Assembly: GCA_047605325.1 (NCBI GenBank)
Contig: JASGFX010000004.1
Coordinates: 14,957-78,956, forward strand
Direction: 5' to 3'
Source: Solirubrobacterales bacterium
Lineage (GTDB): Bacteria; Actinomycetota; Thermoleophilia; Solirubrobacterales; JACPNS01
DNA length: 64,000 nt
Position 1 is the first letter of the stretch. Every line of letters begins with the position of its first letter. The notes below the pieces were generated by a model. That model did no database searches. It was not told the DNA's origin and worked only from the letters and a program-made list of their open reading frames with translations. Shown here in pieces: positions 1-60,484 of the stretch. A program made the position numbers and the translations under genes.

Positions 1-539
1 TCAGTTTCGGACAGCACCATTTTCTCGCGAGCATTTATGTCGCCATGAAACTTCACGACCTCGCGCATGCTCGGATAGTGGCGACGGGCGCTTAGAACTT
101 CGGGAAAGTCAGCCTCTTGGACTAGCCGTTGACAGCGTCCGCCAGCGAGAGAAATGGAGCGTTCGATGAAACTGTCGTAGTTCGTCGTGTAAATCACCGG
201 GCAACCTTCCAGGGCGGCCAATTTCACGTGAATCGCGGAGAGAAGGAGCGCCTCATCAGGCGCATCCAGCTGAGTGAAAAGCCAGTTCAAGAGTTCGTCC
301 TTCTTGCCCTTTCGAGCGAGGAACTCAAGAATCTGCAGATCGGTTCCACGCACCCGAAGCAAGTCTGCATCTTCGAACTCCAGAATCTTTGCCGCCTGGT
401 TGACCAACTCGGGCCAGTTGGGGGGCCGAAATTCCTTTTCGTCAACTTTCCATCTCACAGACGCGGAAACACCAGCACCCACAAACGGGATCAATCGGCC
501 CTCTGCGTAGGAGCTTTTCAGGTCGGGCGGGATCTCCAC
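1..539 (-). CDS. SIR2-like (defence-type SIR2_2) domain protein, N-terminal part only; gene runs off the left edge
   Basis: Absent from the ORF track because it has no stop inside the window. My minus-strand translation from GTG at 539 reads VEIPPDLKSSYAEGRLIPFVGAGVSASV..NWPELVNQAAKIL..CPVIYTTNYDSFIERS..REVVKFHGDINAREKMVLSETD. The ordered GAGxS, TTNYD..E and xHGD motifs are typical of SIR2_2 domains. The GTG shares one base with the TAG stop of the upstream methyltransferase gene. Confidence 0.7.
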   Translation of the reverse strand, partial: MEIPPDLKSSYAEGRLIPFVGAGVSASVRWKVDEKEFRPPNWPELVNQAAKILEFEDADLLRVRGTDLQILEFLARKGKKDELLNWLFTQLDAPDEALLLSAIHVKLAALEGCPVIYTTNYDSFIERSISLAGGRCQRLVQEADFPEVLSARRHYPSMREVVKFHGDINAREKMVLSET

Positions 540-1162
540 TAGTCCGAAGCCTTTCGGGCAATGATTCTCGTCATGCTGTGAACATGCGGGATCCGATTGT
601 GAGGGTGCGACTCTTGGAGATCCTCGTCGGTGGCGTGCTCAAGGCGCCAGCCAGCAAAGCTCCCTAGGTACTCGTCGTGCGGAACTAGCGTCGGTTCAAA
701 ACCCGGGTGCGCCGTCAAATCTTGGTGGCGATCGTTGAAGGCGCAGAGCACGAACAGGCCGCCCGGCCGAACCGATATCTGAATTTTTTCAACGAGTTCG
801 AAAACCTCATCACGATTGGCCATGCAATGGGTTAGGCCGTACGCGATCGCCATGTCGAAGACCCCCTCACCGAGTTTGGACTCGCGAACGTCCGCGGTGC
901 GCCAAGTGACACTCTTAGGGATCCCGCCAAATTGCGTCACTCCGTTCTGTCTAGCCGTCGAAGAAACCTCAATTGCGAGGACGTCAGCCCCGAGGTCCGC
1001 TAGATGTACGGCGTTCTTTCCCTCGCCCGCTCCCACGTCGAGGACGTTCGCCCCAACGGGATCGAATCCGCTCTCGAGTGCAATTTTGACGAGCGAACCC
1101 GGTCCCTCACCCCAGAGGCACGGAACCGCCTGATATCCGTCTTCGTATCCGCCAGCCATCAA
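539..1162 (-). CDS. class I SAM-dependent methyltransferase (TehB-like)
   Basis: 207-aa ORF. SAM-binding motif I VLDVGAGEGKNAVHLA and acidic loop VLAIEVS are present. Overall layout resembles small-molecule TehB-type methyltransferases. Confidence 0.75.
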   Translation of the reverse strand: MMAGGYEDGYQAVPCLWGEGPGSLVKIALESGFDPVGANVLDVGAGEGKNAVHLADLGADVLAIEVSSTARQNGVTQFGGIPKSVTWRTADVRESKLGEGVFDMAIAYGLTHCMANRDEVFELVEKIQISVRPGGLFVLCAFNDRHQDLTAHPGFEPTLVPHDEYLGSFAGWRLEHATDEDLQESHPHNRIPHVHSMTRIIARKASD

Positions 1163-1260
1163 AGTTCACCCATCAAAGATTCGATAACTCATCCAGCGTG
1201 TAGATTCGCGCCGAATGCGCGTGGGGAAGATACCGGATATTTGGGGGCACAACTCTGGCT

Positions 1261-2145
1261 ATGACCCAGTCCTTCATTAAGTGGGCGGGCGGGAAATCCT
1301 GGTTGGCCGAAGCGGTGGGCCAGCTCCTCGGGGAACCCCGAGGTCGCTACATCGAACCCTTTGTCGGATCAGGGGCTGTGTTTTTTGAGCTCGAGCCGGC
1401 GAGGGCCGTTCTCTCGGACGCCAATTCTGAGCTCGTAAATGCACTCAAGGTGGTTCGCGACAACCCTGGGGCACTTAAGGGCCAGCTGCGCCGAAAAACG
1501 ATCTCTGCGGAGCATTTTCTCGCTATACGTGCGAGTAGGCCAAAGAGCGAAGTCGGTCGTGCGGCACGATTTGTGTATCTAAACCGGACCGCGTTTAACG
1601 GCATTTGGAGGGTGAACAGGCAGGGTGACTTCAACGTTCCGTTCGGATGCAAGCCAGGCACTGTCTTGTTCTCATCCGACGGGATCGACGCGTGCTCAAT
1701 TGCCCTCGCAAACGCAGATTTAGAAGTAAATGACTTTCGAGCTTCCCTGACCAAAGTTCAGACGAAAGACTCCGTCTATGTCGACCCGCCATACACGGTG
1801 AGCCACAACAACAATGGCTTTCGTCGCTACAACGAGAAGATTTTCAGCTGGGACGACCAACGGGATCTCGCCGCACGCGTGAACGGGCTCGGCAAACGCG
1901 GCGTCCGAGTCGTGGTTTCAAACGCTCACCACCGTCAGCTCGCGGAGTTGTACAGCGACGAGTGGCTCTCGTTCGCCGAGGTTCGTCGTCAAACCCGTAT
2001 TGCAGGCAGCGCAGAGCACCGTGGAATCACGTCTGAGCTCGTGATTGCGACGAAGCAGATCGCCCCGTCCAACAAAGTGCTTGCTGCTCGGCTTCGTGGT
2101 GCTGGAGTGGCGGCACGCGCTCTGCCCGTTCGCCGGGGGGATTGA
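1261..2145 (+). CDS. dam: DNA adenine methyltransferase, Dam / D12 class N6-MTase
   Basis: 294 aa. N-terminal KWAGGK, motif I EPFVGSGAV and catalytic DPPY are all present in the alpha-group order. Confidence 0.88.
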   Translation: MTQSFIKWAGGKSWLAEAVGQLLGEPRGRYIEPFVGSGAVFFELEPARAVLSDANSELVNALKVVRDNPGALKGQLRRKTISAEHFLAIRASRPKSEVGRAARFVYLNRTAFNGIWRVNRQGDFNVPFGCKPGTVLFSSDGIDACSIALANADLEVNDFRASLTKVQTKDSVYVDPPYTVSHNNNGFRRYNEKIFSWDDQRDLAARVNGLGKRGVRVVVSNAHHRQLAELYSDEWLSFAEVRRQTRIAGSAEHRGITSELVIATKQIAPSNKVLAARLRGAGVAARALPVRRGD

Positions 2146-3683
2146 TGGGCCACTTTCTCCGAGTTGCTGAAAAGGTTCTTCGCACAACGTCGAGGCCGAT
2201 GAGCGCTCGCGAGATCGTCGATGTCGCACTTCGAGATCGGATGCTCGAGTCCGCCGGAAAGACGCCGTCACAGACGATGAAGGCGAAGCTCAGCGTGGAG
2301 ATTCGCAGCAAAGGTCCCGAGTCGATGTTCGTGCGGACGTCGCCTGGCAGGTTTTATCTGAGATCCCTGCTCGAAGACGAAAGCGGAATCTACGAGGCAC
2401 CGCCATTGACCCCTCCGCCCCCCGAAGAACAAGTCCTTGTGTATCCGGCGACGCTCTTCGATGCGATCAACCGACCCCAAGGGCTCATCGTTCGAGGAAA
2501 GGCCTTCGATGACTTGCGGCGGCTCTTGCGCGAAACTGACTCGCATTACATTGACCGTCTTGAGGCGGAGGCGACAGAGGATTTCAAGCAAGCTCTCACC
2601 TACGTGCTGGTCACCCGGGGAAACCAAGTGCTTTGCTTCCAGCGGGGCAGCTACAACCGCGTGGCGGATTTTCTTCGCGGTGCTCGTTGCATCGGCTTTG
2701 GCGGACACGTCACATCTGCGGACGCCACGCTGTTCAGCGCCGAGGACAACGGAATTCTTGGAAACGCCGCCCGGGAGCTAGCCGAAGAACTGAAGCTCCC
2801 AGACGCCGACAAACGTCGGCTTGAGTTCGGTGAGGGGATCGAGCTCGTCGGGATCATCAATGACGACTCGTCGTCTGTTGGCCGAAGACACGTTGCAGCT
2901 GTGTACAGATACGAGGTCAGCGACTCGTCGTCGTGGTCCGAACCCGAACGTGGCGAGAAATCGATAACCCAACTCGGGTGGCTTGATATCGGCAGTGAAA
3001 CTGTCCGGCTCGAAGAGTTCGAGTATTGGTCGCAGTTGTGCCTAAGTGGGTACTTCGGTTCTTCCGTCAAGGGTGCGCCCTCATTCAACATCCGGCGAAA
3101 GCTTGACCTCTCTGGCAAGCACATTCTCGTGATCATGGGAGAAATCGGAAGCGGTAAATCATCAATGACTTCCGTACTCACGAGCGATTTTGGTTACACC
3201 GAGGTCAACAGCGGTGCTGCACTTGCGGAACTCCTTGACCTGCCAAAGTTGGCGCCTGCGGGCGAGTCTGGGCGCGCGGAATTTCAGAACGCCGCGGCTT
3301 CGTTCATCAATTCGCCAGACGGCCCGCGAAAGCTCGCGATCGAGATACTTCGTCGCGCTCGCGAGTCCGGCGCGGATCGAGTGGTCGTCGATGGGATCCG
3401 TCAACGCGCGACACTGGATGCAATTCGTGACGCAGCCGAACATCCGATATACACAGTGTACGTGCATACCCCCCCGGATGTAGCCTTCCGCCTGTACAAG
3501 AGCCGTCGCGGTGACAATCCGACCGTTCAGGAGTTTGTCGAGGTGCGGGAAGCGGAGGTTGAGAGCGAAGTGGCTGAAATGATCCAAGTGGCCGACACGG
3601 TCGTGTACAACTGGATTGGCCAGGGGGCATTCCGAACTGTGATCCGCTCGGTGATGGGTGACCTCGGAGTTACTCGATCCTGA
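2142..3683 (+). CDS. three-domain fusion: HARE-HTH winged helix + Nudix-like hydrolase + P-loop nucleotide/nucleoside kinase-like domain
   Basis: 513 aa. The N-terminus MSAREIVDVAL..GKTPSQTMKAKLSVEI..FVRTSPGRFYLR matches the HARE-HTH pattern. The middle has a Nudix-box-like GGHV..GNAARELAEELKL. The C-terminus has Walker A ILVIMGEIGSGKSS and Walker-B-like RVVVDGIR. The ATG overlaps the dam stop (ATGA). Confidence 0.7.
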   Translation: MMGHFLRVAEKVLRTTSRPMSAREIVDVALRDRMLESAGKTPSQTMKAKLSVEIRSKGPESMFVRTSPGRFYLRSLLEDESGIYEAPPLTPPPPEEQVLVYPATLFDAINRPQGLIVRGKAFDDLRRLLRETDSHYIDRLEAEATEDFKQALTYVLVTRGNQVLCFQRGSYNRVADFLRGARCIGFGGHVTSADATLFSAEDNGILGNAARELAEELKLPDADKRRLEFGEGIELVGIINDDSSSVGRRHVAAVYRYEVSDSSSWSEPERGEKSITQLGWLDIGSETVRLEEFEYWSQLCLSGYFGSSVKGAPSFNIRRKLDLSGKHILVIMGEIGSGKSSMTSVLTSDFGYTEVNSGAALAELLDLPKLAPAGESGRAEFQNAAASFINSPDGPRKLAIEILRRARESGADRVVVDGIRQRATLDAIRDAAEHPIYTVYVHTPPDVAFRLYKSRRGDNPTVQEFVEVREAEVESEVAEMIQVADTVVYNWIGQGAFRTVIRSVMGDLGVTRS

Positions 3684-3698
3684 CGATCCCAGCCTGGC

Positions 3699-5210
3699 CT
3701 AGCAAAGATCAAGATCCTGCGTCACGACGGGATTCCTCGCCGCAGCCGCCTCATCCAAACGCCGCACCGGCGTCGTGTACGGCGCGTTCTTCACGAACTC
3801 AGCGTCGCGCTCGGACTCTTCGAGGATCTGATCGAGAGCGTCGATGAAGCCGTCGAGCGTCTCCATCGTCTCGGTCTCGGTCGGCTCGATCATCAGCGCC
3901 TCGTCGACGAGCAACGGGAAGTAGATCGTCGGCGGGTGGTAGCCCAGATCAAGCAGGCGCTTGGCGATGTCGGTGGCGCGCACGTCGAGGTCGCGCTTGG
4001 CCGGTGAAGCCGAGAGCACGTACTCGTGCTTGCACGTGCGATCAAACTCAACCGGCAGGTACTTCGCAACGCGCTCCTTCTTCTTGCCCTGCTCGAGCAT
4101 GTAGTTGGCGTTCAGCACGGCCGTCTCGGAGGCGGCCTTCAGGCCCTCGCCGCCGAGCGAGAGGATGTACGCGTAGGTGCGCACGAACACGCCGAAGTTG
4201 CCCTGGAAGCCGCGCAGGCGGCCGATGCTCTTGGGCTGGTCGAAGTCGTAGGCAAAGCGGCCGTCCTTCTTTGCAACCCGCGGCACCGGCAGATACGGGG
4301 CCATGCGCTCGGAGACCGCGATTGGGCCGCTGCCCGGACCGCCGCCGCCGTGCGGCTGCGTGAACGACTTGTGCAGGTTCATGTGGACGATGTCAAAGCC
4401 CATGTCGCCCGGGCGCGAGATGCCCATCACCGCGTTGAGGTTCGCGCCGTCGTAGTAGAGCGTCGCGCCTACCGAGTGCATGATCTCGGCGATCTCCTCG
4501 ATGTTCTCGTCGAACAGGCCCAGGGTGTTGGGGTTCGTGAGCATCAGGCAGGCGACATCCGTGGTCGCCTTCTCGCGCAGGTCGTCGATGTCGACTCCCC
4601 CGCGCTCGTTGGTCGCCACCTTGACCGTTTCGTATCCGGCCATCGTGACCGTCGCCGGGTTGGTGCCGTGCGAGGTGTCGGGGGCGAGAACCTTCGTGCG
4701 GTGCTCGCCGCGGTCCTCGTGGTAGGCCTTCGTCAGCAGCACTCCGGCGAGCTCGCCGTGGCTCCCGGCGCTCGGCTGGAGGCAAACGTGCGGCAGGCCC
4801 GTGATCTCGCTGAGCGCGCCCTCGAGGTAGTACATCAGCTCCAGCGCGCCCTGGGCACGGTCACTGTTCTGCAGCGGGTGCAGACGAGAAAAGCCGGGCA
4901 GCGCCGCGGCGCGCTCGTGCAGCTTCGGGTTGTGCTTCATCGTGCACGAGCCGAGCGGGTAGAAGCCGCTGTCGAGGTCGAAGTTGCGGCGGCTGAGCTT
5001 GTTGTAGTGGCGGACGATCTCGGGCTCGGCGATCTCCGGCAGACGCGCCGGCGCCTTGCGGATCGCGCCCTCCGGCAGCAATTCGGAGACGTCGCGGTCG
5101 GGCACATCGAGTGCTGGCAGCGCGCTCGCGCGGCGGCCCGGCTTGGACTTCTCGTAGATCGTCGTGGCCTTCTCGGCCTGCATCGGGGTTTCGGTGACGT
5201 TGACGGTCAT
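3699..5210 (-). CDS. gcvPB: glycine dehydrogenase (aminomethyl-transferring) subunit 2
   Basis: 503 aa. PLP-lysine region [18 protein letters not shown] is present. Overlaps the gcvPA stop. Confidence 0.93.
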
Positions 5211-6580
5211 GCGCTCACCCCCACGGTCGAGGCAGTCGCAATCGCCGCGCCCAGCCGTTCTGCGAGCAGGTCGATCTGCTCGCGGCTGCGCTTCTCGGTG
5301 ATCGCCACGAGGATCGCGTCGCCCAGCTCGGGGTAGTCGATCCCGAGCCGGTAACCACCGTTGATGCCGTCGAGCGCGAGCTGGTCGAGCACGGCGCGCG
5401 CCGGGGCGTCGACCTTGATCGCAAACTCGCGGAAGACCGGAGCGTCGAACAGCAGTTCCACGCCGTCGACAGCCGAGAGCGCCTCGCGCGCGTAGGCCGT
5501 GCGCTTGAGCATCAGCTCGCCGAGTTCGACGATCCCCTTGCGGCCGAGCCAGCTCAGGTAGATCGTGCCCGCGAGCGCGTTCAGCGCCTGGCTCGTGCAG
5601 ATGTTGCTGGTCGCCTTCTCACGGCGGATGTGCTGTTCGCGCGTCTGCAGCGTGAGCACCCAGCCGCGGCGGCCGTCGGCGTCGACGGTCTCGCCGGCGA
5701 TGCGGCCGGGCATGCGGCGGATCAGCTTCTTGGTGGCGGCGAAGAAACCGAAGCTCGGGCCGCCGAAGTCGAGGCGGTTGCCGAGCGTCTGGCCCTCGCC
5801 GACGCAGATGTCGACGCCGAAGTCGCCTGGAGGCGCGAGTACGCCCAAGGTGAGCGGGTCGGCAACGCAGACGACGAGCGCGCCCTTGGCATGGGCGGCC
5901 TCGGTCAGCGCGCCGAGATCCTCGATCGAGCCGAAGAAGTTCGGGTACTGGATGAAGATCGCCGCGGTCTCGTCGTCGATCTGCTCGGCGAACGTGGCCG
6001 GGTCGGTGACGCCGTTCTCGGCGTTCACCTCGACGACCTCGCCGCCATAGCCGTGGGCGTTGGTCTTGAGCGTCTGGCGGTACTGCGGGTTGACGGCCGA
6101 CGAGACGACGAACCTGGTCCGCTTGTTCTCGTTGTAGGCGAGGTAGCCGGCAGCGGCCATCGCGCTCGGACCCTCATACACGGAAGCGTTGGAGACGTCT
6201 AGACCGGTCAGTTCGGCGATCGCCGTCTGGTACTCGAACATCACCTGCAGGTTGCCCTGACTGACCTCAGGCTGGTACGGCGTGTACGGCGTGAGGAACT
6301 CGCTGCGCGAGATGATCGAGTCGACCAGCGCGGGGACGTAGTGGTCGTACATCCCGGCGCCGAGGAAGCTGATCTCGCGGTCGGCGTGGATGTTCTTCTC
6401 GGCGAGCGCGGCGAGGTGGTCGAACACCTCGAACTCGGCCTTGCCCGCAGGCAGGTCGAGCGGGCGCTGGAGCCGCACCCCATCGGGGATGTCGGCGAAA
6501 AGGTCATCGATCGAATCCGCCCCGATCGCGGCCAGCATGGCGGCGCGGTCGTCGGGCGTGTCAGACGTGTACGTGCTCAA
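5207..6580 (-). CDS. gcvPA: glycine dehydrogenase subunit 1
   Basis: 457 aa with a typical GcvPA N-terminus ([23 protein letters not shown]). TTG start preceded by a GAAGGA RBS. Confidence 0.92.
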
Positions 6581-6739
6581 ACGCGGTCCTTCGTGAGTCG
6601 GGGAGACGCGCCGCCTGGGGTCGGCGGGGCGTTATGGAGACTTTAGAAGGTGGGCTGGCGGGAGGTTGAGATGGATCGCGGTGGAGTTTTGGCGATCAAA
6701 AGGAGTTTTGCGGCACGGCGCAAATTGCGTGTCCCGCAT

Positions 6740-6806
6740 AAACAAGCGGTAAATCTTCCTAGGTCTGCGCTCGCGGCGCAGACCTAGGAGCAAATCGCCC
6801 TTGTTT
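6740..6806. repeat. palindromic REP-like element, copy 1
   Basis: Perfect 13-bp stem CCTAGGTCTGCGC (6758-6770) / GCGCAGACCTAGG (6776-6788) with a 5-nt loop. It is flanked by imperfect arms AAACAAGCGGTAAATCTTCC / GGAGCAAATCGCCCTTGTTT. Related copies lie at 60285-60345 and 60542-60606. Confidence 0.7.
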
Positions 6807-6845
6807 GCGCAGGTCCGAGCGAAGGGCTGACCCCTTCGCCGGAAT

Positions 6846-7235
6846 TCAGCCGGCGAGCAGCCCTTCGTATCCGGCCTTGTCGAGCAGGCTGCTCGTCTCG
6901 CTCGGGTCCGAGAGCCGGATCTTGACCATCCACCCCGCTCCGTACGGGTCGTCGTTGATCGTCTCGGGCGCGTCGCCCAGGGCCTCGTTGACCTCGATGA
7001 TCTCGCCGCTCAATGGCGAGACGACCTCGGATACGGCCTTGACCGACTCGATCTCGGCGTAAGAGGCATCCTTGGTGACGGTCGACCCGACGGCCGGCGG
7101 CTCGAAGAACACGACCTCACCCAGCGCATCCTGCGCGAACCAGGTGATTCCGAATGTGGCGACGTCGCCCTCGATCTTGGCCCAGTCGTGCTCGGGGTGG
7201 TACAGCAGACCGTCGGGGTAGTTCTCTTCAGCCAC
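6846..7235 (-). CDS. gcvH: glycine cleavage system H protein
   Basis: 129 aa. Lipoyl-lysine motif EIESVKAVSEV is present. Confidence 0.93.
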   Translation of the reverse strand: MAEENYPDGLLYHPEHDWAKIEGDVATFGITWFAQDALGEVVFFEPPAVGSTVTKDASYAEIESVKAVSEVVSPLSGEIIEVNEALGDAPETINDDPYGAGWMVKIRLSDPSETSSLLDKAGYEGLLAG

Positions 7236-7280
7236 TTTGGAAACCTTTCAGGGGTCGATTGCTGGGCGCAATCCTAATGG

Positions 7281-8381
7281 TTAGGCAGGCTTGACGTAGA
7301 GCGGGCGCTTGCGCACCTGTGCCGGGCGCAGCTTGCCGCGGATGTCGATCTCGATGTCGCTGCCCGACTCGGTGAAGCGCGAGTCGATATAGGCCATCCC
7401 CACGCCGCTGTCGAGCGACGGCGAGAGCGTGCCACTGGTGACGACGCCGATCTCATCGCCGCCGCGGACAACCGGGTTGCCCTGGCGCGGAATGCCGGGG
7501 CCGACGATCGTGAACGGCACGAGCTTGCGCTCCGGCCCGTTGGCGGCGATCTCCTTGAGCGCGTCAACCCCGACGAAGTCGGTCTCCAGCGCGCAGGCCC
7601 ACGAGAGGCCGGCCGAGATCGGATCGACATCGCGCGAAAGGTCGTTGCCGTAGAGGTGGAAGCAGACCTCGAGTCGCAGCGTGTCACGCGCGGCGAGGCC
7701 GATCGGCTTGGCCCCGGCGATGATCAGGTCTTCCCAGACGATCGGGGCGTCGGCCGGCGAGACGAGGATCTCCACCCCGTCCTCACCGGTGTAGCCGGTG
7801 CCGGCGATCAGCGCCGGGTGGTTTGCGACCTTGCTGTCGACGATCGTCATCCGCTCGGGCGCCGCGGCGCCACCGAGCAACTGCGCGAGCACCGTGCGCG
7901 CCTGCGGACCCTGCAGCGCGATCATCGCGTACTCGTTGGCACGGTCGATCACGTCGACGTCGAAGCCACCGGCGTTGCCTGCGAACCACTCGAAATCGGT
8001 CGGATGGTTGGCCGCGTTGGTGACGGTCAGATAGCGGTTCTGACCGAGCCGGTAGGTGAAGAGGTCGTCGATCACACCGCCGTCGGCCTGACATATCAGC
8101 GAGTACTGCGCGCCACCGATCGGGATCTTGCTGACGTCGTTGGTGAGGATCGACTGCAGGAACTGCTCGGCCTGCGGGCCGGTCGTCTCGATCTGGCCCA
8201 TGTGCGAGACGTCGAAGATTCCGGCATGCTGGCGGACCTGCTGGTGCTCGGCGCGGATGCCGTCCTGGTACTGCACCGGCATCTCCCAGCCGGCGAACGG
8301 GACGACCTTGGCGCCTTCGGCAACATGGCGGTCGTAGAGCGGAGTGCGGCGCAGCGGCTGCGCGGATTCGGTCTCGGTCAT
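7281..8381 (-). CDS. gcvT: aminomethyltransferase (glycine cleavage T protein)
   Basis: Track ORF 7281-8564 trimmed to the ATG at 8381 (MTETESAQPLRRTPLYDRHVAEGAKVVPFAGWEMPVQY). That ATG overlaps the stop of the upstream kinase gene (ATGA). Confidence 0.9.
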   Translation of the reverse strand: MTETESAQPLRRTPLYDRHVAEGAKVVPFAGWEMPVQYQDGIRAEHQQVRQHAGIFDVSHMGQIETTGPQAEQFLQSILTNDVSKIPIGGAQYSLICQADGGVIDDLFTYRLGQNRYLTVTNAANHPTDFEWFAGNAGGFDVDVIDRANEYAMIALQGPQARTVLAQLLGGAAAPERMTIVDSKVANHPALIAGTGYTGEDGVEILVSPADAPIVWEDLIIAGAKPIGLAARDTLRLEVCFHLYGNDLSRDVDPISAGLSWACALETDFVGVDALKEIAANGPERKLVPFTIVGPGIPRQGNPVVRGGDEIGVVTSGTLSPSLDSGVGMAYIDSRFTESGSDIEIDIRGKLRPAQVRKRPLYVKPA

Positions 8382-9373
8382 GATTGGCGCGAGACTAGCG
8401 CCGCCATTCGGCTTCGCAGGATTCGCCACCGCGAGGCGCCTGTCAGCCGGGCGATCCGGCGAGCGATCGATCGCGTTGCGCCACGCGAGCCGCCGCCCGC
8501 AAAGAAGTTCCAGATCTCGATCTCGTGGTAGAGCCAGTAGGCGTCGAACACGCGATCGAGCCACGGCGGCGGATCGCCGTAGCCATCAAGCATCGCCCGC
8601 CACAGATCGGCGCGCGGCGGAAAGCGATGGTGATGCGTACGCACGAGGTCCATCGCCGGATCGCCGCCGAAGCTGATCTCGAGGTCGAGCGCGCCCACGA
8701 TCCGCAGCGCTCCATCGACCTCCGCGACGCGCAGGTTCGCCGGATGCATGTCGCCGTGACAGAAACGTGGACCGGGACACTCGTCAAGCCCCGCACGGTG
8801 TTCGGCGAACCAACGCTCGACGCACCACGCGAGGTAGCGATTGGCGCCGTTCTCGCGAAAGGCGCGCAGCGCGAGCACGACGCGATCGTCGAACCACGAG
8901 ACGTTGTCGTCAAAGCCGCGACCGGGTTCATCGAGAAGTGGCCAGAAGTGCGGCAGCTCCACCGCGTGAAAGCGCGCCAGCAACTCGCCGATCTCGCGGT
9001 ACAGCGCGACCAACTGGGCATCGCCCAGGTCGGCGAGTTTGGTGTTCATCGGCGTGCCCGGCGCCAGCGACATCAGGAGGTAACCGTGCGGAGCGCCCTC
9101 GAACCCGAGCGCGCTGGACACCACCTTCGGCACCTGCGGAACAGCAGACCCGAGCACGGCGTAGGCCCCGAGTTCACGGCGAGCGGCGTCGGGTTTCACG
9201 TAGAGCTTCAGTGCGAGCGGCTCGCCGTGCTCGAAGTCGAGCCGCAGCACGCGTGCCTTGACGCCTTCGCCGATCTCGGATACGCCCGTGAGCGCACGCT
9301 CGATCCCGGCGGCGCGGACGATCCGCTCCGCAATCGCGAAGTCAGCTGAGGGCGGAGCTTCCGCCCCGGCCAA
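8378..9373 (-). CDS. aminoglycoside-phosphotransferase-fold (APH/ChoK family) kinase
   Basis: 331 aa. Catalytic loop CHGDMHPANL and a downstream DLE (DFG-equivalent) are present. Apparent TTG start two nt after the ftsZ stop. Confidence 0.75.
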   Translation of the reverse strand: MAGAEAPPSADFAIAERIVRAAGIERALTGVSEIGEGVKARVLRLDFEHGEPLALKLYVKPDAARRELGAYAVLGSAVPQVPKVVSSALGFEGAPHGYLLMSLAPGTPMNTKLADLGDAQLVALYREIGELLARFHAVELPHFWPLLDEPGRGFDDNVSWFDDRVVLALRAFRENGANRYLAWCVERWFAEHRAGLDECPGPRFCHGDMHPANLRVAEVDGALRIVGALDLEISFGGDPAMDLVRTHHHRFPPRADLWRAMLDGYGDPPPWLDRVFDAYWLYHEIEIWNFFAGGGSRGATRSIARRIARLTGASRWRILRSRMAALVSRQS

Positions 9374-9374
9374 A

Positions 9375-10511
9375 CTAATCCTCGCGGAGGAAGTCCGGGA
9401 CGTCGATGTCGTCGTCGGAGATCTCGAGCGATCCGCGATCGACGTCCTTGCGTCCGACGTCGCGACGTGGACGGCGCGAGGAGCGCTCAGTCGTGAAGTC
9501 GAGTGCGCCGCGACTGCTCGAAGCGCCGCGGCGATCGAAGCCGGTCGCGATGACGGTCACACGGACCTCATCACCGAGCGACTCATCGATCACGGCGCCG
9601 AAGATGATGTTGGCGTTCTGATCCGCGGCGCTAGAGACGATCTCGGCGGCCTCGTTGATCTCGAACAGACCGACTTCCTTGCCGCCGGTGATGTTGAGCA
9701 GGATGCCGGTGGCACCCTCGACGCTCTCTTCGAGCAGCGGCGAGCTGATCGCGTTCTTGGCGGCCTCACCGGCGCGGCCTTCACCACTACCGGCGCCGAT
9801 GCCCATCAGGGCGCTGCCGGCATCGTGCATGATCGTGCGCACGTCGGCGAAGTCGAGGTTGATCAGACCGGGAGTGGTGATCAGGTCGGTGATGCCCTGG
9901 ACACCCTGGCGCAGCACGTTGTCGGCGTCGCGGAAGGCGTCGAGGATCGAGGTGCGGCGCTCGACGGTGCTGAGCAGCCGCTCGTTCGGAATCACGATCA
10001 GCGTGTCGACCTGCTCGCGCAGTCGCTGGATGCCCTCGTCGGCCTGCTTGGCGCGCTGGGATCCTTCAAAGGAGAACGGCCGGGTGACCACGCCCACGGT
10101 GAGCGCGCCGACTTCCTGCTTGGCGATCTCGGCAATCACCGGAGCAGCGCCGGTGCCGGTGCCACCGCCCTCTCCGGCGGTGACGAAGACGAGGTCGGCG
10201 CCCTTGAGCGCCTCCTTGATGTCGTCGCGGCTCTCGGACGCCGCGCCCGCGCCGATCGACGGGTCGGCGCCCGCGCCGAGACCCTTGGTGAGCGTCGAGC
10301 CGATGTTCAGCTTGACGTCGGCGTCGCACATCTGCAAAGCCTGTGCGTCGGTGTTGACCGCGATGAACTCGACACCCTTGAGTCCGGCGTCGACCATGCG
10401 GTTCACTGCGTTGGTACCGCCGCCGCCGACCCCCACGACCTTGATCACGGCCAGGTAGCTGCCTGCGTCACGGCCAGCGCCGCCCTGCGGGTTGTAGTCA
10501 AAGTCGTTCAT
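9375..10511 (-). CDS. ftsZ: cell division GTPase FtsZ
   Basis: 378 aa. Tubulin signature GGGTGTG and N-terminal [13 protein letters not shown] are present. Confidence 0.97.
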
Positions 10512-49119: not shown

Positions 49120-49154
49120 GGTCATTCCCCTTTCCACGAGGGATCGATATGTGT

Positions 49155-49355
49155 TGGGAACGGCCGGGAGAGGTTTCCTGGCTGACGGGGACGATTCAGC
49201 GCGCCTTCCCAGCAGTCTCACTGCCAGTGGCTCGACGCCGATGCGAGTTGCGCTTGCGGCGGCGATGCGATGAACACGCCCGATCACAGTGGCGGGTCCG
49301 CGCCGGTTTCACACCGGACTTCCCTCGTCACGACCGAGTGGTAGCGAGGGTAGCG
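49155..49355 (-). promoter_or_regulatory. cobalamin (B12) riboswitch
   Basis: The minus strand reads ..GGTCGTGACGAGGGAAGTCCGGTGTGAAACCGGCGCGGACCCGCCACTGTGATCGGG..GAGCCACTGGCAGTGAGACTGCTGGGAAGGCGCG..CAGCCAGGAAACCTCTC. It contains the conserved AGGGAA/GGTG.AA.CC/CCCGCCACTGT core and the GCCACTG B12 box. It sits directly upstream of the first operon gene. Confidence 0.85.
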
Positions 49356-49386
49356 GTCGCCGGGAGCGTCCGTAGGATCGACAGCG

Positions 49387-60411: not shown

Positions 60412-60484
60412 TACCGCCACGGGGATTCGAACCCCGGTTTCCGCCGTGAGAGGGCGGCGTCCTAGTCCCCTAGACGATGGCGGC
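60412..60484 (-). tRNA. tRNA-Glu (anticodon CUC)
   Basis: Minus strand reads GCCGCCATCGTCTAGGGGACTAGGACGCCGCCCTCTCACGGCGGAAACCGGGGTTCGAATCCCCGTGGCGGTA. It folds as a cloverleaf with T-loop GGTTCGAATCC and anticodon loop C-U-CUC-A-C. The acceptor stem has 7 bp, with a G1-U72 wobble. CCA is not encoded. Confidence 0.85.

Follow-up and report, generated by a model that had tools for sequence, protein, structure and literature searches.

A HARE-HTH, Nudix and kinase fusion protein as a candidate sensor/signal-enzyme subunit of a Kongming-like cassette in a Solirubrobacterales bacterium

The stretch of DNA considered here (the window) comprises 64,000 nucleotides of contig JASGFX010000004.1 from a Solirubrobacterales bacterium (assembly GCA_047605325.1). 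Close to its left end lies an open reading frame (ORF) of 513 codons (2142..3683, plus strand), hereafter the target gene, whose product joins a HARE-HTH, a Nudix-fold and a nucleoside monophosphate (NMP) kinase-fold domain and is discussed here as a candidate component of an anti-phage cassette. The TTG at 2142 immediately precedes an ATG at 2145, and the public copy of the protein (P0001, described as 'HTH domain-containing protein' from a Solirubrobacterales metagenome-assembled genome) has 512 amino acids, so that the true start is probably the ATG at 2145. This ATG overlaps the stop codon of the preceding dam gene (TGA, 2143-2145) in the string TGATG. The target is not a chance ORF, since 675 homologues were found in the databases, mostly full length and with 45-56% identity; the family spans at least 10 phyla.

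The gene preceding the target on the same strand (1261..2145) encodes a Dam-family DNA adenine-N6 methyltransferase, an optional member of the cassette. It was recognized by TIGR00571 (E 1.7e-59, 201.7 bits against a cut-off of 114.85) and by PF02086 (E 1.7e-39), and its translation contains DPPY (VDPPYT). The presence of this Dam-family gene upstream (TIGR00571) bears out the connection to DNA or adenine methylation genes that had been proposed in the initial annotation, which was made from the sequence alone. In the whole window GATC is over-represented, with 836 sites for the 491 +/- 19 expected from dinucleotide-preserving shuffles. Sites of the Dam/DpnII type show no sign of counter-selection there, and the DNA would be densely marked if Dam is active.

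Upstream of dam a divergent intergenic region of 98 bp (1163..1260), presumed to hold promoters, separates the dam/target arm from an arm on the minus strand. Scans of positions 1-4200 for sigma-70 promoters and terminators gave nothing above chance, and repeat searches detected no operator-like repeat in the 98 bp. The first gene of the minus-strand arm (539..1162) encodes a class I S-adenosyl-L-methionine (SAM) methyltransferase of the TehB-like small-molecule type (Pfam Methyltransf_25/11, TehB). Its profile matched TehB and 6mro in the PDB with E-values of 1e-16 to 1e-17 and is not DNA-methyltransferase-like, and the motifs GGYDxGY..CFWG and HPHNxIxHxHS are invariant and specific to its family. 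It is followed by the first 179 codons of a SIR2 (NADase) gene similar to komC of the Kongming defence system (1..539, minus strand), which runs off the left edge of the window and whose GTG start (539-537) overlaps the methyltransferase stop codon. The SIR2 proteins of related cassettes matched the window by tblastn with an E-value of 2e-51 and an uninterrupted frame. The fragment at 3-545 (minus strand) showed 31% identity to the KomC of E. coli (BLASTP, E 9e-24) and contains the GAG and TTNYD motifs as well as the catalytic His of KFHGD.

These genes form an island of foreign composition. Positions 1-3690 have a GC content of 57.7%, compared with 67.4% elsewhere in the window, and the GC content at third codon positions (GC3) is 64-66% in the island against 91% in the abutting gcvP genes. 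From this foreign GC and GC3 it follows that the island was recently acquired horizontally. On the right, 15 nt lie between the island and the stop codon of gcvPB (3699..5210, minus strand). No flanking direct or inverted repeats marking the island ends were found, no tRNA or integrase is visible on its right side, and its left side is outside the window.

The division of the target protein into three domains, as first read from the sequence, was upheld by Pfam, by profile searches against the PDB and by an AlphaFold model built on 34 homologues (mean pLDDT, the predicted local distance difference test, of 90.2). All the motifs quoted for it were located, namely SAREIVDVAL (residues 21-30), KTPSQTMKAKLSVEI (40-54), FVRTSPGRFYL (63-73), GGHV (187-190), GNAARELAEELKL (207-219), GEIGSGKSS (333-341) and DGIR (417-420). 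The spacing between GGHV and GNAAREL (GNAARELAEELKL) had been given as 14 residues and is 16 when counted. Residue conservation was scored across 34 sequences from many phyla, to which the statements on invariant residues below refer.

The N-terminal HARE-HTH winged-helix domain (2157..2369, plus strand; residues 6-76) was recognized by PF05066 with an E-value of 7.6e-14 and 52.3 bits, the gathering cut-off being 25.9, and it is present in 34/34 family members according to Pfam. HARE-HTH has been proposed as a reader of DNA modifications, and it is linked to adenine methyltransferases and restriction enzymes (PMC4738411).

The middle of the protein (2415..3071, plus strand; residues ~92-310) is a TM1382-like Nudix-fold domain. 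The target protein itself has no Pfam NUDIX match; among the aligned homologues 18/34 matched PF00293 at E < 0.01. The family profile found 3e57 in the PDB (TM1382, 'putative Nudix hydrolase') with an E-value of 4.7e-13, and when the predicted structure was searched with Foldseek, a check that had been proposed at the outset, the middle domain again led to 3e57 (template modelling score, TM, of 0.79, E 1e-11); NUDT15 and NadM-Nudix (2qjt) were also matched. The variant Nudix box lies at nucleotides 2703-2798 of the plus strand (residues 188-219). Compared with GX5EX7REUXEEXGU it keeps REUXEE, with R211, E212, L213, E215 and E216 invariant, while the first half is G188-x5-D194 with 16 residues after it instead of seven, and the G of XGU is a K. 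The earlier description of the box as non-canonical is therefore correct as far as the spacing is concerned, REUXEE being intact. The further suggestion that the domain is a ligand sensor rather than a hydrolase found no support, as the box residues are invariant. In addition to G188, D194, R211, E212, E215 and E216, the stretch N240-D242 is invariant. The conservation of these six box residues and the intact metal-binding helix favour a working hydrolase.

TM1382 of Thermotoga maritima (PDB 3e57, COG4112-type) is the best match of this domain in both sequence and structure, and it has the same variant box, with GGHV, a long loop and RExxEE. It differs in being a single-domain, uncharacterised protein, whereas the Nudix domain of the target is fused to HARE-HTH and a kinase within a candidate defence operon. 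A stand-alone TM1382-like Nudix gene (L065 4944-5561) is found on phage-like plasmids of Bacillus licheniformis immediately downstream of nrdE/nrdF, with a dCMP deaminase gene close by, and similar Nudix proteins of Pseudomonas and Acinetobacter phages were found with Foldseek. Because of this nrdE/nrdF setting and the phage relatives, a (deoxy)nucleotide substrate would fit the TM1382-like Nudix clade.

The C-terminal part (3099..3656, plus strand; residues ~320-505) is a P-loop domain resembling NMP kinases, with a Walker A motif at nucleotides 3138-3161 of the plus strand (residues 333-340) and a DGxR motif at residues 417-420. Matches of the target to Pfam AAA_33/18/17 score under their cut-offs. 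For this domain the family profile aligned end to end with SSO1041 (3lw7/3h0k; E 1e-11), an AMP-bound protein of the adenylate-kinase-like type. Adenylate and UMP/CMP kinases came next, as they did in the Foldseek search, which placed the C-terminal domain of the model on 3lw7 with a TM of 0.82. Invariant residues are G333, S337, G338, K339, G418, R420 and R455, corresponding to GxxGSGK(S/T) and (D)GxR. The likeness to SSO1041 (UPF0200) thus extends to the full-length fold and profile match, the Walker A motif and the DG(V/I)R motif, which is equivalent to DGFPR of adenylate kinase. SSO1041 differs in being archaeal and stand-alone with an unproven substrate, while the kinase domain of the target is fused. 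The one pointer to the substrate is the AMP-bound relative 3lw7, which suggests an NMP. The possibility that the domain is a captured phage deoxynucleoside monophosphate (dNMP) kinase was considered and rejected; the profile comparison with seven phage dNMP kinases matched the P-loop only. Since their catalytic residues are conserved, both enzymatic domains, Nudix and kinase, look competent.

In order to place the target in its genomic context, one genome per species was scanned for 185,579 species, and 62 loci with relatives of the target were obtained. They come from Acidobacteriota, Actinomycetota, Alphaproteobacteria, Verrucomicrobiota, Nitrospirota, Chloroflexota, Bacteroidota and others. 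All ORFs of these loci were clustered and the partners identified by Pfam, and exactly four neighbours were found to be conserved besides the target. These are the TehB-like class I SAM methyltransferase (~207 aa, in ~54/62 loci, usually directly downstream of the target), a SIR2_2 protein (~278 aa, 52/62 loci; PF13289, E 1e-27), a Ham1p_like protein (HAM1; ~216 aa, 53/62 loci; PF01725, E 5e-15) and Dam, a D12-class methyltransferase (~296 aa, 24/62 loci, typically with a 4-nt overlap with the target). The commonest order, on one strand, is [dam]-target-methyltransferase-SIR2-HAM1, and the junctions, including that between SIR2 and HAM1, are most often 4-nt overlaps. In about 10 loci the methyltransferase-SIR2-HAM1 arm is inverted. 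The recording of neighbours of homologues with the same architecture, another check proposed beforehand, therefore yielded a methyltransferase, SIR2 and HAM1 as nearly constant companions. The association of target and methyltransferase is reciprocal: the methyltransferase family has 702 proteins and the target family 675, many of them on common contigs, and three methyltransferase homologues picked independently on other long contigs all had a target homologue adjoining (3/3).

The coupling to dam, on which the initial annotation had centred, is real and at the same time facultative, with Dam at 24/62 loci compared with 52-54/62 for the methyltransferase, SIR2 and HAM1. In a neighbour-joining tree of the targets, Dam was linked in ~24/33 of the non-alphaproteobacterial clade plus one outlier, and in 0/27 of the alphaproteobacterial loci. 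Alphaproteobacteria carry the chromosomal adenine methyltransferase CcrM. The Dam link is consistent with a self-marking role read by the HARE-HTH domain. A small AAA_28 gene, coding for a NadR-kinase-like P-loop protein, was observed upstream of dam in four loci (L003 6536-7129, L013, L014 and L017) and may be another optional cassette gene.

Other neighbours of the 62 loci include type I restriction-modification subunits, an MmeI-like enzyme, HEPN_Swt1 with DUF499, a Mokosh-like helicase, MobA relaxase, an RHS toxin, serine/tyrosine recombinases and integrases, all of the defence or mobile class, and some are plainly housekeeping genes. PADLOC (2023) has no model for the target or for its HAM1 partner, and no relative of the target was found in the IMG/VR viral contigs.

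The SIR2/HAM1 pair leads to Kongming, in which KomA is an adenosine deaminase, KomB a HAM1-like sensor of deoxyinosine triphosphate (dITP) and KomC a SIR2 NADase (Zeng et al., bioRxiv 10.1101/2024.12.20.629578). In this system KomA together with a phage dNMP kinase produces dITP, which binds to KomB and switches on the KomC NADase, and the infected cell dies; KomB has lost its catalytic activity through an Asp-to-His change (bioRxiv 10.1101/2024.12.20.629578). With the KomB and KomC sequences of Table S1 of that preprint, 33% identity over the full length was found between KomC and the SIR2 of a related cassette (L009; E 5e-47), and 32% identity between KomB and the cassette HAM1 (E 1e-27). 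In the alignment of cassette SIR2 proteins GAG, TTNYD and the catalytic His146 are invariant. H65 (the Asp-to-His position) and the phosphate-binding residues K12 and E15 are invariant in 18/18 cassette HAM1 proteins; F140, W142 and D143 are likewise invariant, and all of these are shared with KomB. From these homologies and invariant residues it is concluded that the cassette carries a true KomBC-type effector module, judged by sequence comparison, and since this pair adjoins the target, the target itself is likely to be a component of a defence system. A mobile or defence setting is another feature that the pair has in common with Kongming.

The cassette also departs from Kongming in several respects. 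Neither KomA nor any other adenosine deaminase was found by Pfam among the conserved neighbours of the 62 loci; the TehB-like methyltransferase and the HARE-HTH/Nudix/kinase protein stand in its place. The cassette has its own kinase, whereas Kongming relies on that of the phage, and the gene order is methyltransferase-SIR2-HAM1, with Dam optional, instead of komA-komB-komC. Moreover, five positions of the KomB pocket are replaced in the cassette HAM1. Three canonical KomB proteins (from E. coli, from Vibrio beside an adenosine deaminase gene, and from Pantoea) have N9, H/Q11, T66, Q141 and R168, whereas the 18/18 cassette HAM1 proteins have S9 (N in one), F/Y/W11 (H in one), A66, Y141 and S168. 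In the structures of KomBC with dITP the residues H11, Q141 and R168 contact the hypoxanthine base (PMC13454610). As these contact positions are replaced, it is unlikely that the cassette HAM1 reads dITP, and its pocket is more aromatic (F11, F140, Y141, W142). Pairs of HAM1 and SIR2 genes similar to komBC, with the canonical pocket residues, were also observed on Pantoea megaplasmids (L122 and L123, ~95 records); no adenosine deaminase is annotated adjacent to them in the PLSDB gene table, which is incomplete.

KomBC modules without KomA have been mentioned before, associated with e.g. 'NTPase, and SAM-dependent methyltransferase' (bioRxiv 10.1101/2024.12.20.629578), the preprint giving such associations solely as untested candidates, and according to a structural paper of 2026 other enzymes of nucleotide metabolism may take the place of KomA. 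Our literature search found no paper pairing HARE-HTH with Nudix or mentioning COG4112, none in the anti-phage literature combining Nudix, SIR2, methyltransferase and nucleotide kinase, and none characterising this cassette or naming its HARE-HTH/Nudix part. The cassette has therefore been anticipated in outline and is uncharacterised; its own kinase and Nudix domains, the DNA-binding domain, the optional Dam and the re-tuned pocket would be new if confirmed.

The wider family was explored by an exhaustive search of 1.8 billion representative proteins, which gave 142 clusters at E < 1e-30. Their architectures include the three-domain form (~500 aa), HARE-HTH with Nudix (~310 aa) and Nudix with kinase (~370 aa). 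Four-domain proteins, 740-753 aa long, also occur, with HARE-HTH, Nudix and kinase followed at the C-terminus by a class I SAM methyltransferase (P0208, P0212, P0223, P0236 and P0241; L066 5001-7262 and L071 1654-3906). The genes encoding them stand alone, their surroundings containing integrase, transposase, PIN and Fic genes but no SIR2/HAM1, and the fused methyltransferase domain belongs to another subfamily than that of the cassette. These fusions provide an independent tie between the Nudix/kinase protein and a methyltransferase.

HARE-HTH with Nudix but without kinase has further partners. A 308-aa gene of this kind overlaps a CHAT-protease gene on plasmids of Leisingera and on the pTi plasmid of Agrobacterium (L063 5992-8600 and L064 6001-8618), the pTi copy being beside TIR, caspase and more CHAT genes, and the pair looks like an undescribed two-gene defence module. 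At L069 (4238-7840) a HARE-HTH and Nudix gene lies between a divergent class I methyltransferase gene and an overlapping gene for a 636-aa PNP_UDP_1 (nucleoside phosphorylase) protein. As the partners differ (SIR2/HAM1, CHAT, PNP_UDP_1), and as such mixing is typical of defence systems, HARE-HTH with Nudix, often accompanied by a methyltransferase, behaves like an input module joined to various effectors. In the plasmid collection only two-domain or Nudix-only relatives were found and no full-length three-domain homologue. A relative on an Acinetobacter phage-plasmid has an uninformative context.

Taking as observed the identities of the domains, the operon, the KomB and KomC homology, the missing KomA, the pocket change and the foreign composition, we consider it rather likely (a probability of about 0.6) that the target provides the sensor/signal-enzyme subunit of a Kongming variant, an anti-phage cassette gained by horizontal transfer. 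The substrates, the order of the reactions, the trigger and the anti-phage phenotype are what we infer. In such a scheme the methyltransferase, replacing the deaminase, would add a methyl group to the base of a purine nucleoside monophosphate. The kinase domain of the target would then phosphorylate the methylated nucleotide towards the triphosphate, the host nucleoside diphosphate kinase finishing the synthesis, and would replace or supplement the phage kinase of Kongming. The altered aromatic pocket of HAM1 would sense the methylated (deoxy)nucleoside triphosphate ((d)NTP) and the SIR2 NADase would become active, resulting in abortive infection. The initial annotation had already proposed that the Nudix and kinase domains act on a modified nucleotide, and this has been kept as the best reading.

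Two roles can be envisaged for the Nudix domain. It may convert an NTP to the NMP that serves as precursor for the methyltransferase, in an assembly line of Nudix, methyltransferase and kinase, or it may hydrolyse the signal and keep the system off in uninfected cells, as in a Rel/SpoT-like switch. Rel/SpoT proteins combine opposing synthesis and hydrolysis of a nucleotide with a regulatory domain in one polypeptide, which would fit a kinase/Nudix switch; they have no homology to the target, and the analogy is offered as a hypothesis. The HARE-HTH domain would bind DNA and possibly read the adenine methylation set by Dam on self DNA, gating the production of the signal. A more specific and tentative proposal, for which we would claim only limited credence, is that a base-methylated purine (d)NTP, for example N6-methyl-dATP, is a new immune messenger, made by the methyltransferase and the target, that is read by the aromatic pocket of HAM1 and gated through HARE-HTH by the adenine methylation of nearby host DNA, set by the Dam of the cassette or, in Alphaproteobacteria, by CcrM.

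Several points weigh against the proposed role in a Kongming variant. The anti-phage function is deduced from homology and context, and at this locus SIR2 is cut and HAM1 would lie beyond the window edge, so that a complete cassette is presumed here from the divergent layout, which is the same as that of L009, where HAM1 is found past SIR2. Unless it is gated, a cassette that brings its own kinase would be switched on all the time, and on paper the kinase and the Nudix domain run in opposite directions. Nothing specific links the sequence of the kinase domain to the phage dNMP kinases by which Kongming is triggered, and the nearest solved relatives of the methyltransferase (TehB and others) do not act on nucleotides. 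The specificity of HARE-HTH for DNA modifications is disputed, as the HARE-HTH domain of ASXL1 pulled down DNA with N6-methyladenine (PMC6591016) and cytosine modifications have been considered the likelier ligand (PMC11037411). At one locus (L126 3464-8032) the target and the methyltransferase are present with no SIR2/HAM1; in their place are a second TM1382-like Nudix protein, a 223-aa protein and an HhH-GPD (DNA glycosylase-like) protein, adjoining a large NB-ARC/nSTAND1-WD40 protein. Finally, HARE-HTH with Nudix occurs beside CHAT, which is not known to bind nucleotides, and without a methyltransferase, and the role of the Nudix domain may be one of sensing.

Other explanations account for fewer of the observations. 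The target could be an accessory of the NADase, its Nudix domain hydrolysing ADP-ribose (ADPR) or other NAD-derived products of SIR2 and its kinase acting on a pyridine or adenine nucleoside or nucleotide, so that the phage could not rebuild NAD+ from ADPR and nicotinamide. ADPR is the product of SIR2 NADases, the ADP-ribose pyrophosphatase domain of NadM-Nudix (2qjt) is among the structural matches, and the NadR-kinase-like AAA_28 gene upstream of dam in four loci would suit this; phages are reported to answer the depletion of NAD+ by rebuilding it from ADPR. However, the closest structures are TM1382 and those of the NUDT15 type, which are not ADPR hydrolases, and such destruction of NAD precursors would leave unexplained the obligatory methyltransferase, the methyltransferase fusions, the missing KomA, the change in the KomB pocket and the association of HARE-HTH and Nudix with effectors other than NADases. 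We regard it as unlikely. Quite improbable is an NrtR-like regulator in which HARE-HTH binds the promoter of the operon and the Nudix-like domain senses a nucleotide such as ADPR or the cassette's own signal, the protein mainly controlling expression of the cassette. An N-terminal winged helix does precede a Nudix fold with a non-canonical box, and the target is the first gene in most operons or, as in the window, faces a divergent promoter region; yet the REUXEE, Walker A and DGxR residues are invariant, the domain order is reversed, the intergenic region has no operator-like repeat, and both the translational coupling with enzymes and the methyltransferase fusion point to an enzyme. The parallel to NadR and NrtR drawn at first is thus an analogy only. 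A DNA-binding HTH combined with nucleotide-handling domains is common to all three, but NrtR is a repressor with a degenerate N-terminal Nudix domain and a C-terminal winged HTH, in reverse of the order in the target, where the catalytic motif is kept, and NadR joins an HTH to a nicotinamide mononucleotide (NMN) adenylyltransferase and a ribosylnicotinamide kinase, the adenylyltransferase domain being absent from the target.

Housekeeping offers a further explanation, namely that Nudix, kinase and HAM1 clear or recycle methylated purine nucleotides, such as the N6-methyl-dAMP set free when Dam-methylated DNA is turned over, with no part in immunity. Dam adjoins in 24 loci, the HAM1 and Nudix families are classical sanitising enzymes, and human MTH1 hydrolyses N6-methyl-dATP. 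Nevertheless most loci are without Dam, the SIR2 partner belongs with the NADases of the ThsA/KomC type, and the cassette HAM1 has the Asp-to-His replacement by which KomB lost its hydrolytic activity. The cassette is moreover rare (62 of the 185,579 species genomes), patchy across phyla and compositionally foreign, and it is found in defence and mobile contexts, so that nucleotide hygiene seems very improbable. The version first put forward, a stand-alone DNA-targeted enzyme paired only with Dam, interconverting a nucleotide or NAD-derived ligand at methylated DNA and using a non-catalytic Nudix sensor, we find the hardest to believe, and the neighbourhoods of the relatives already contradict it. 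It draws on the overlap of the dam stop with the target start and on the recurrent linkage of HARE-HTH to adenine methyltransferases (PMC4738411), while Dam is absent from 38/62 loci, the methyltransferase/SIR2/HAM1 trio is nearly constant and the catalytic Nudix residues are invariant.

Outside the island, the glycine cleavage operon gcvPB, gcvPA, gcvH and gcvT adjoins it at 3699-8564 (minus strand). The longest gcvT ORF is extended by ~60 residues at its N-terminus, and the true start is probably internal. No glycine riboswitch was found upstream of gcvT with Rfam, even at a permissive threshold, and positions 1-9500 gave no Rfam match. At the gathering score Rfam detected in the whole window only a cobalamin riboswitch (67 bits; 49149-49379, minus strand) and a tRNA (60412-60484, minus strand).

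If the target does serve a Kongming variant, the consequences reach beyond this bacterium. The cassette would not depend on a phage kinase and would have a different trigger, possibly the methylation state of the DNA. Were the more specific proposal on methylated (d)NTPs true, self/non-self marking in the style of restriction-modification would be joined to abortive infection by a nucleotide messenger in one system. The re-use of the HARE-HTH and Nudix pair makes the question of what prokaryotic HARE-HTH domains read a testable one, and the cassette is open to experiment since cultured organisms carry it, among them Rhodopseudomonas palustris BisB18, Afipia clevelandensis and strains of Bradyrhizobium, Methylobacterium and Granulicella. 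Kongming provides the case of a base-modified nucleotide, dITP, as immune messenger; if the present reading is confirmed, signalling by base-modified nucleotides would be a family of chemistries, deamination and methylation, and not one case.

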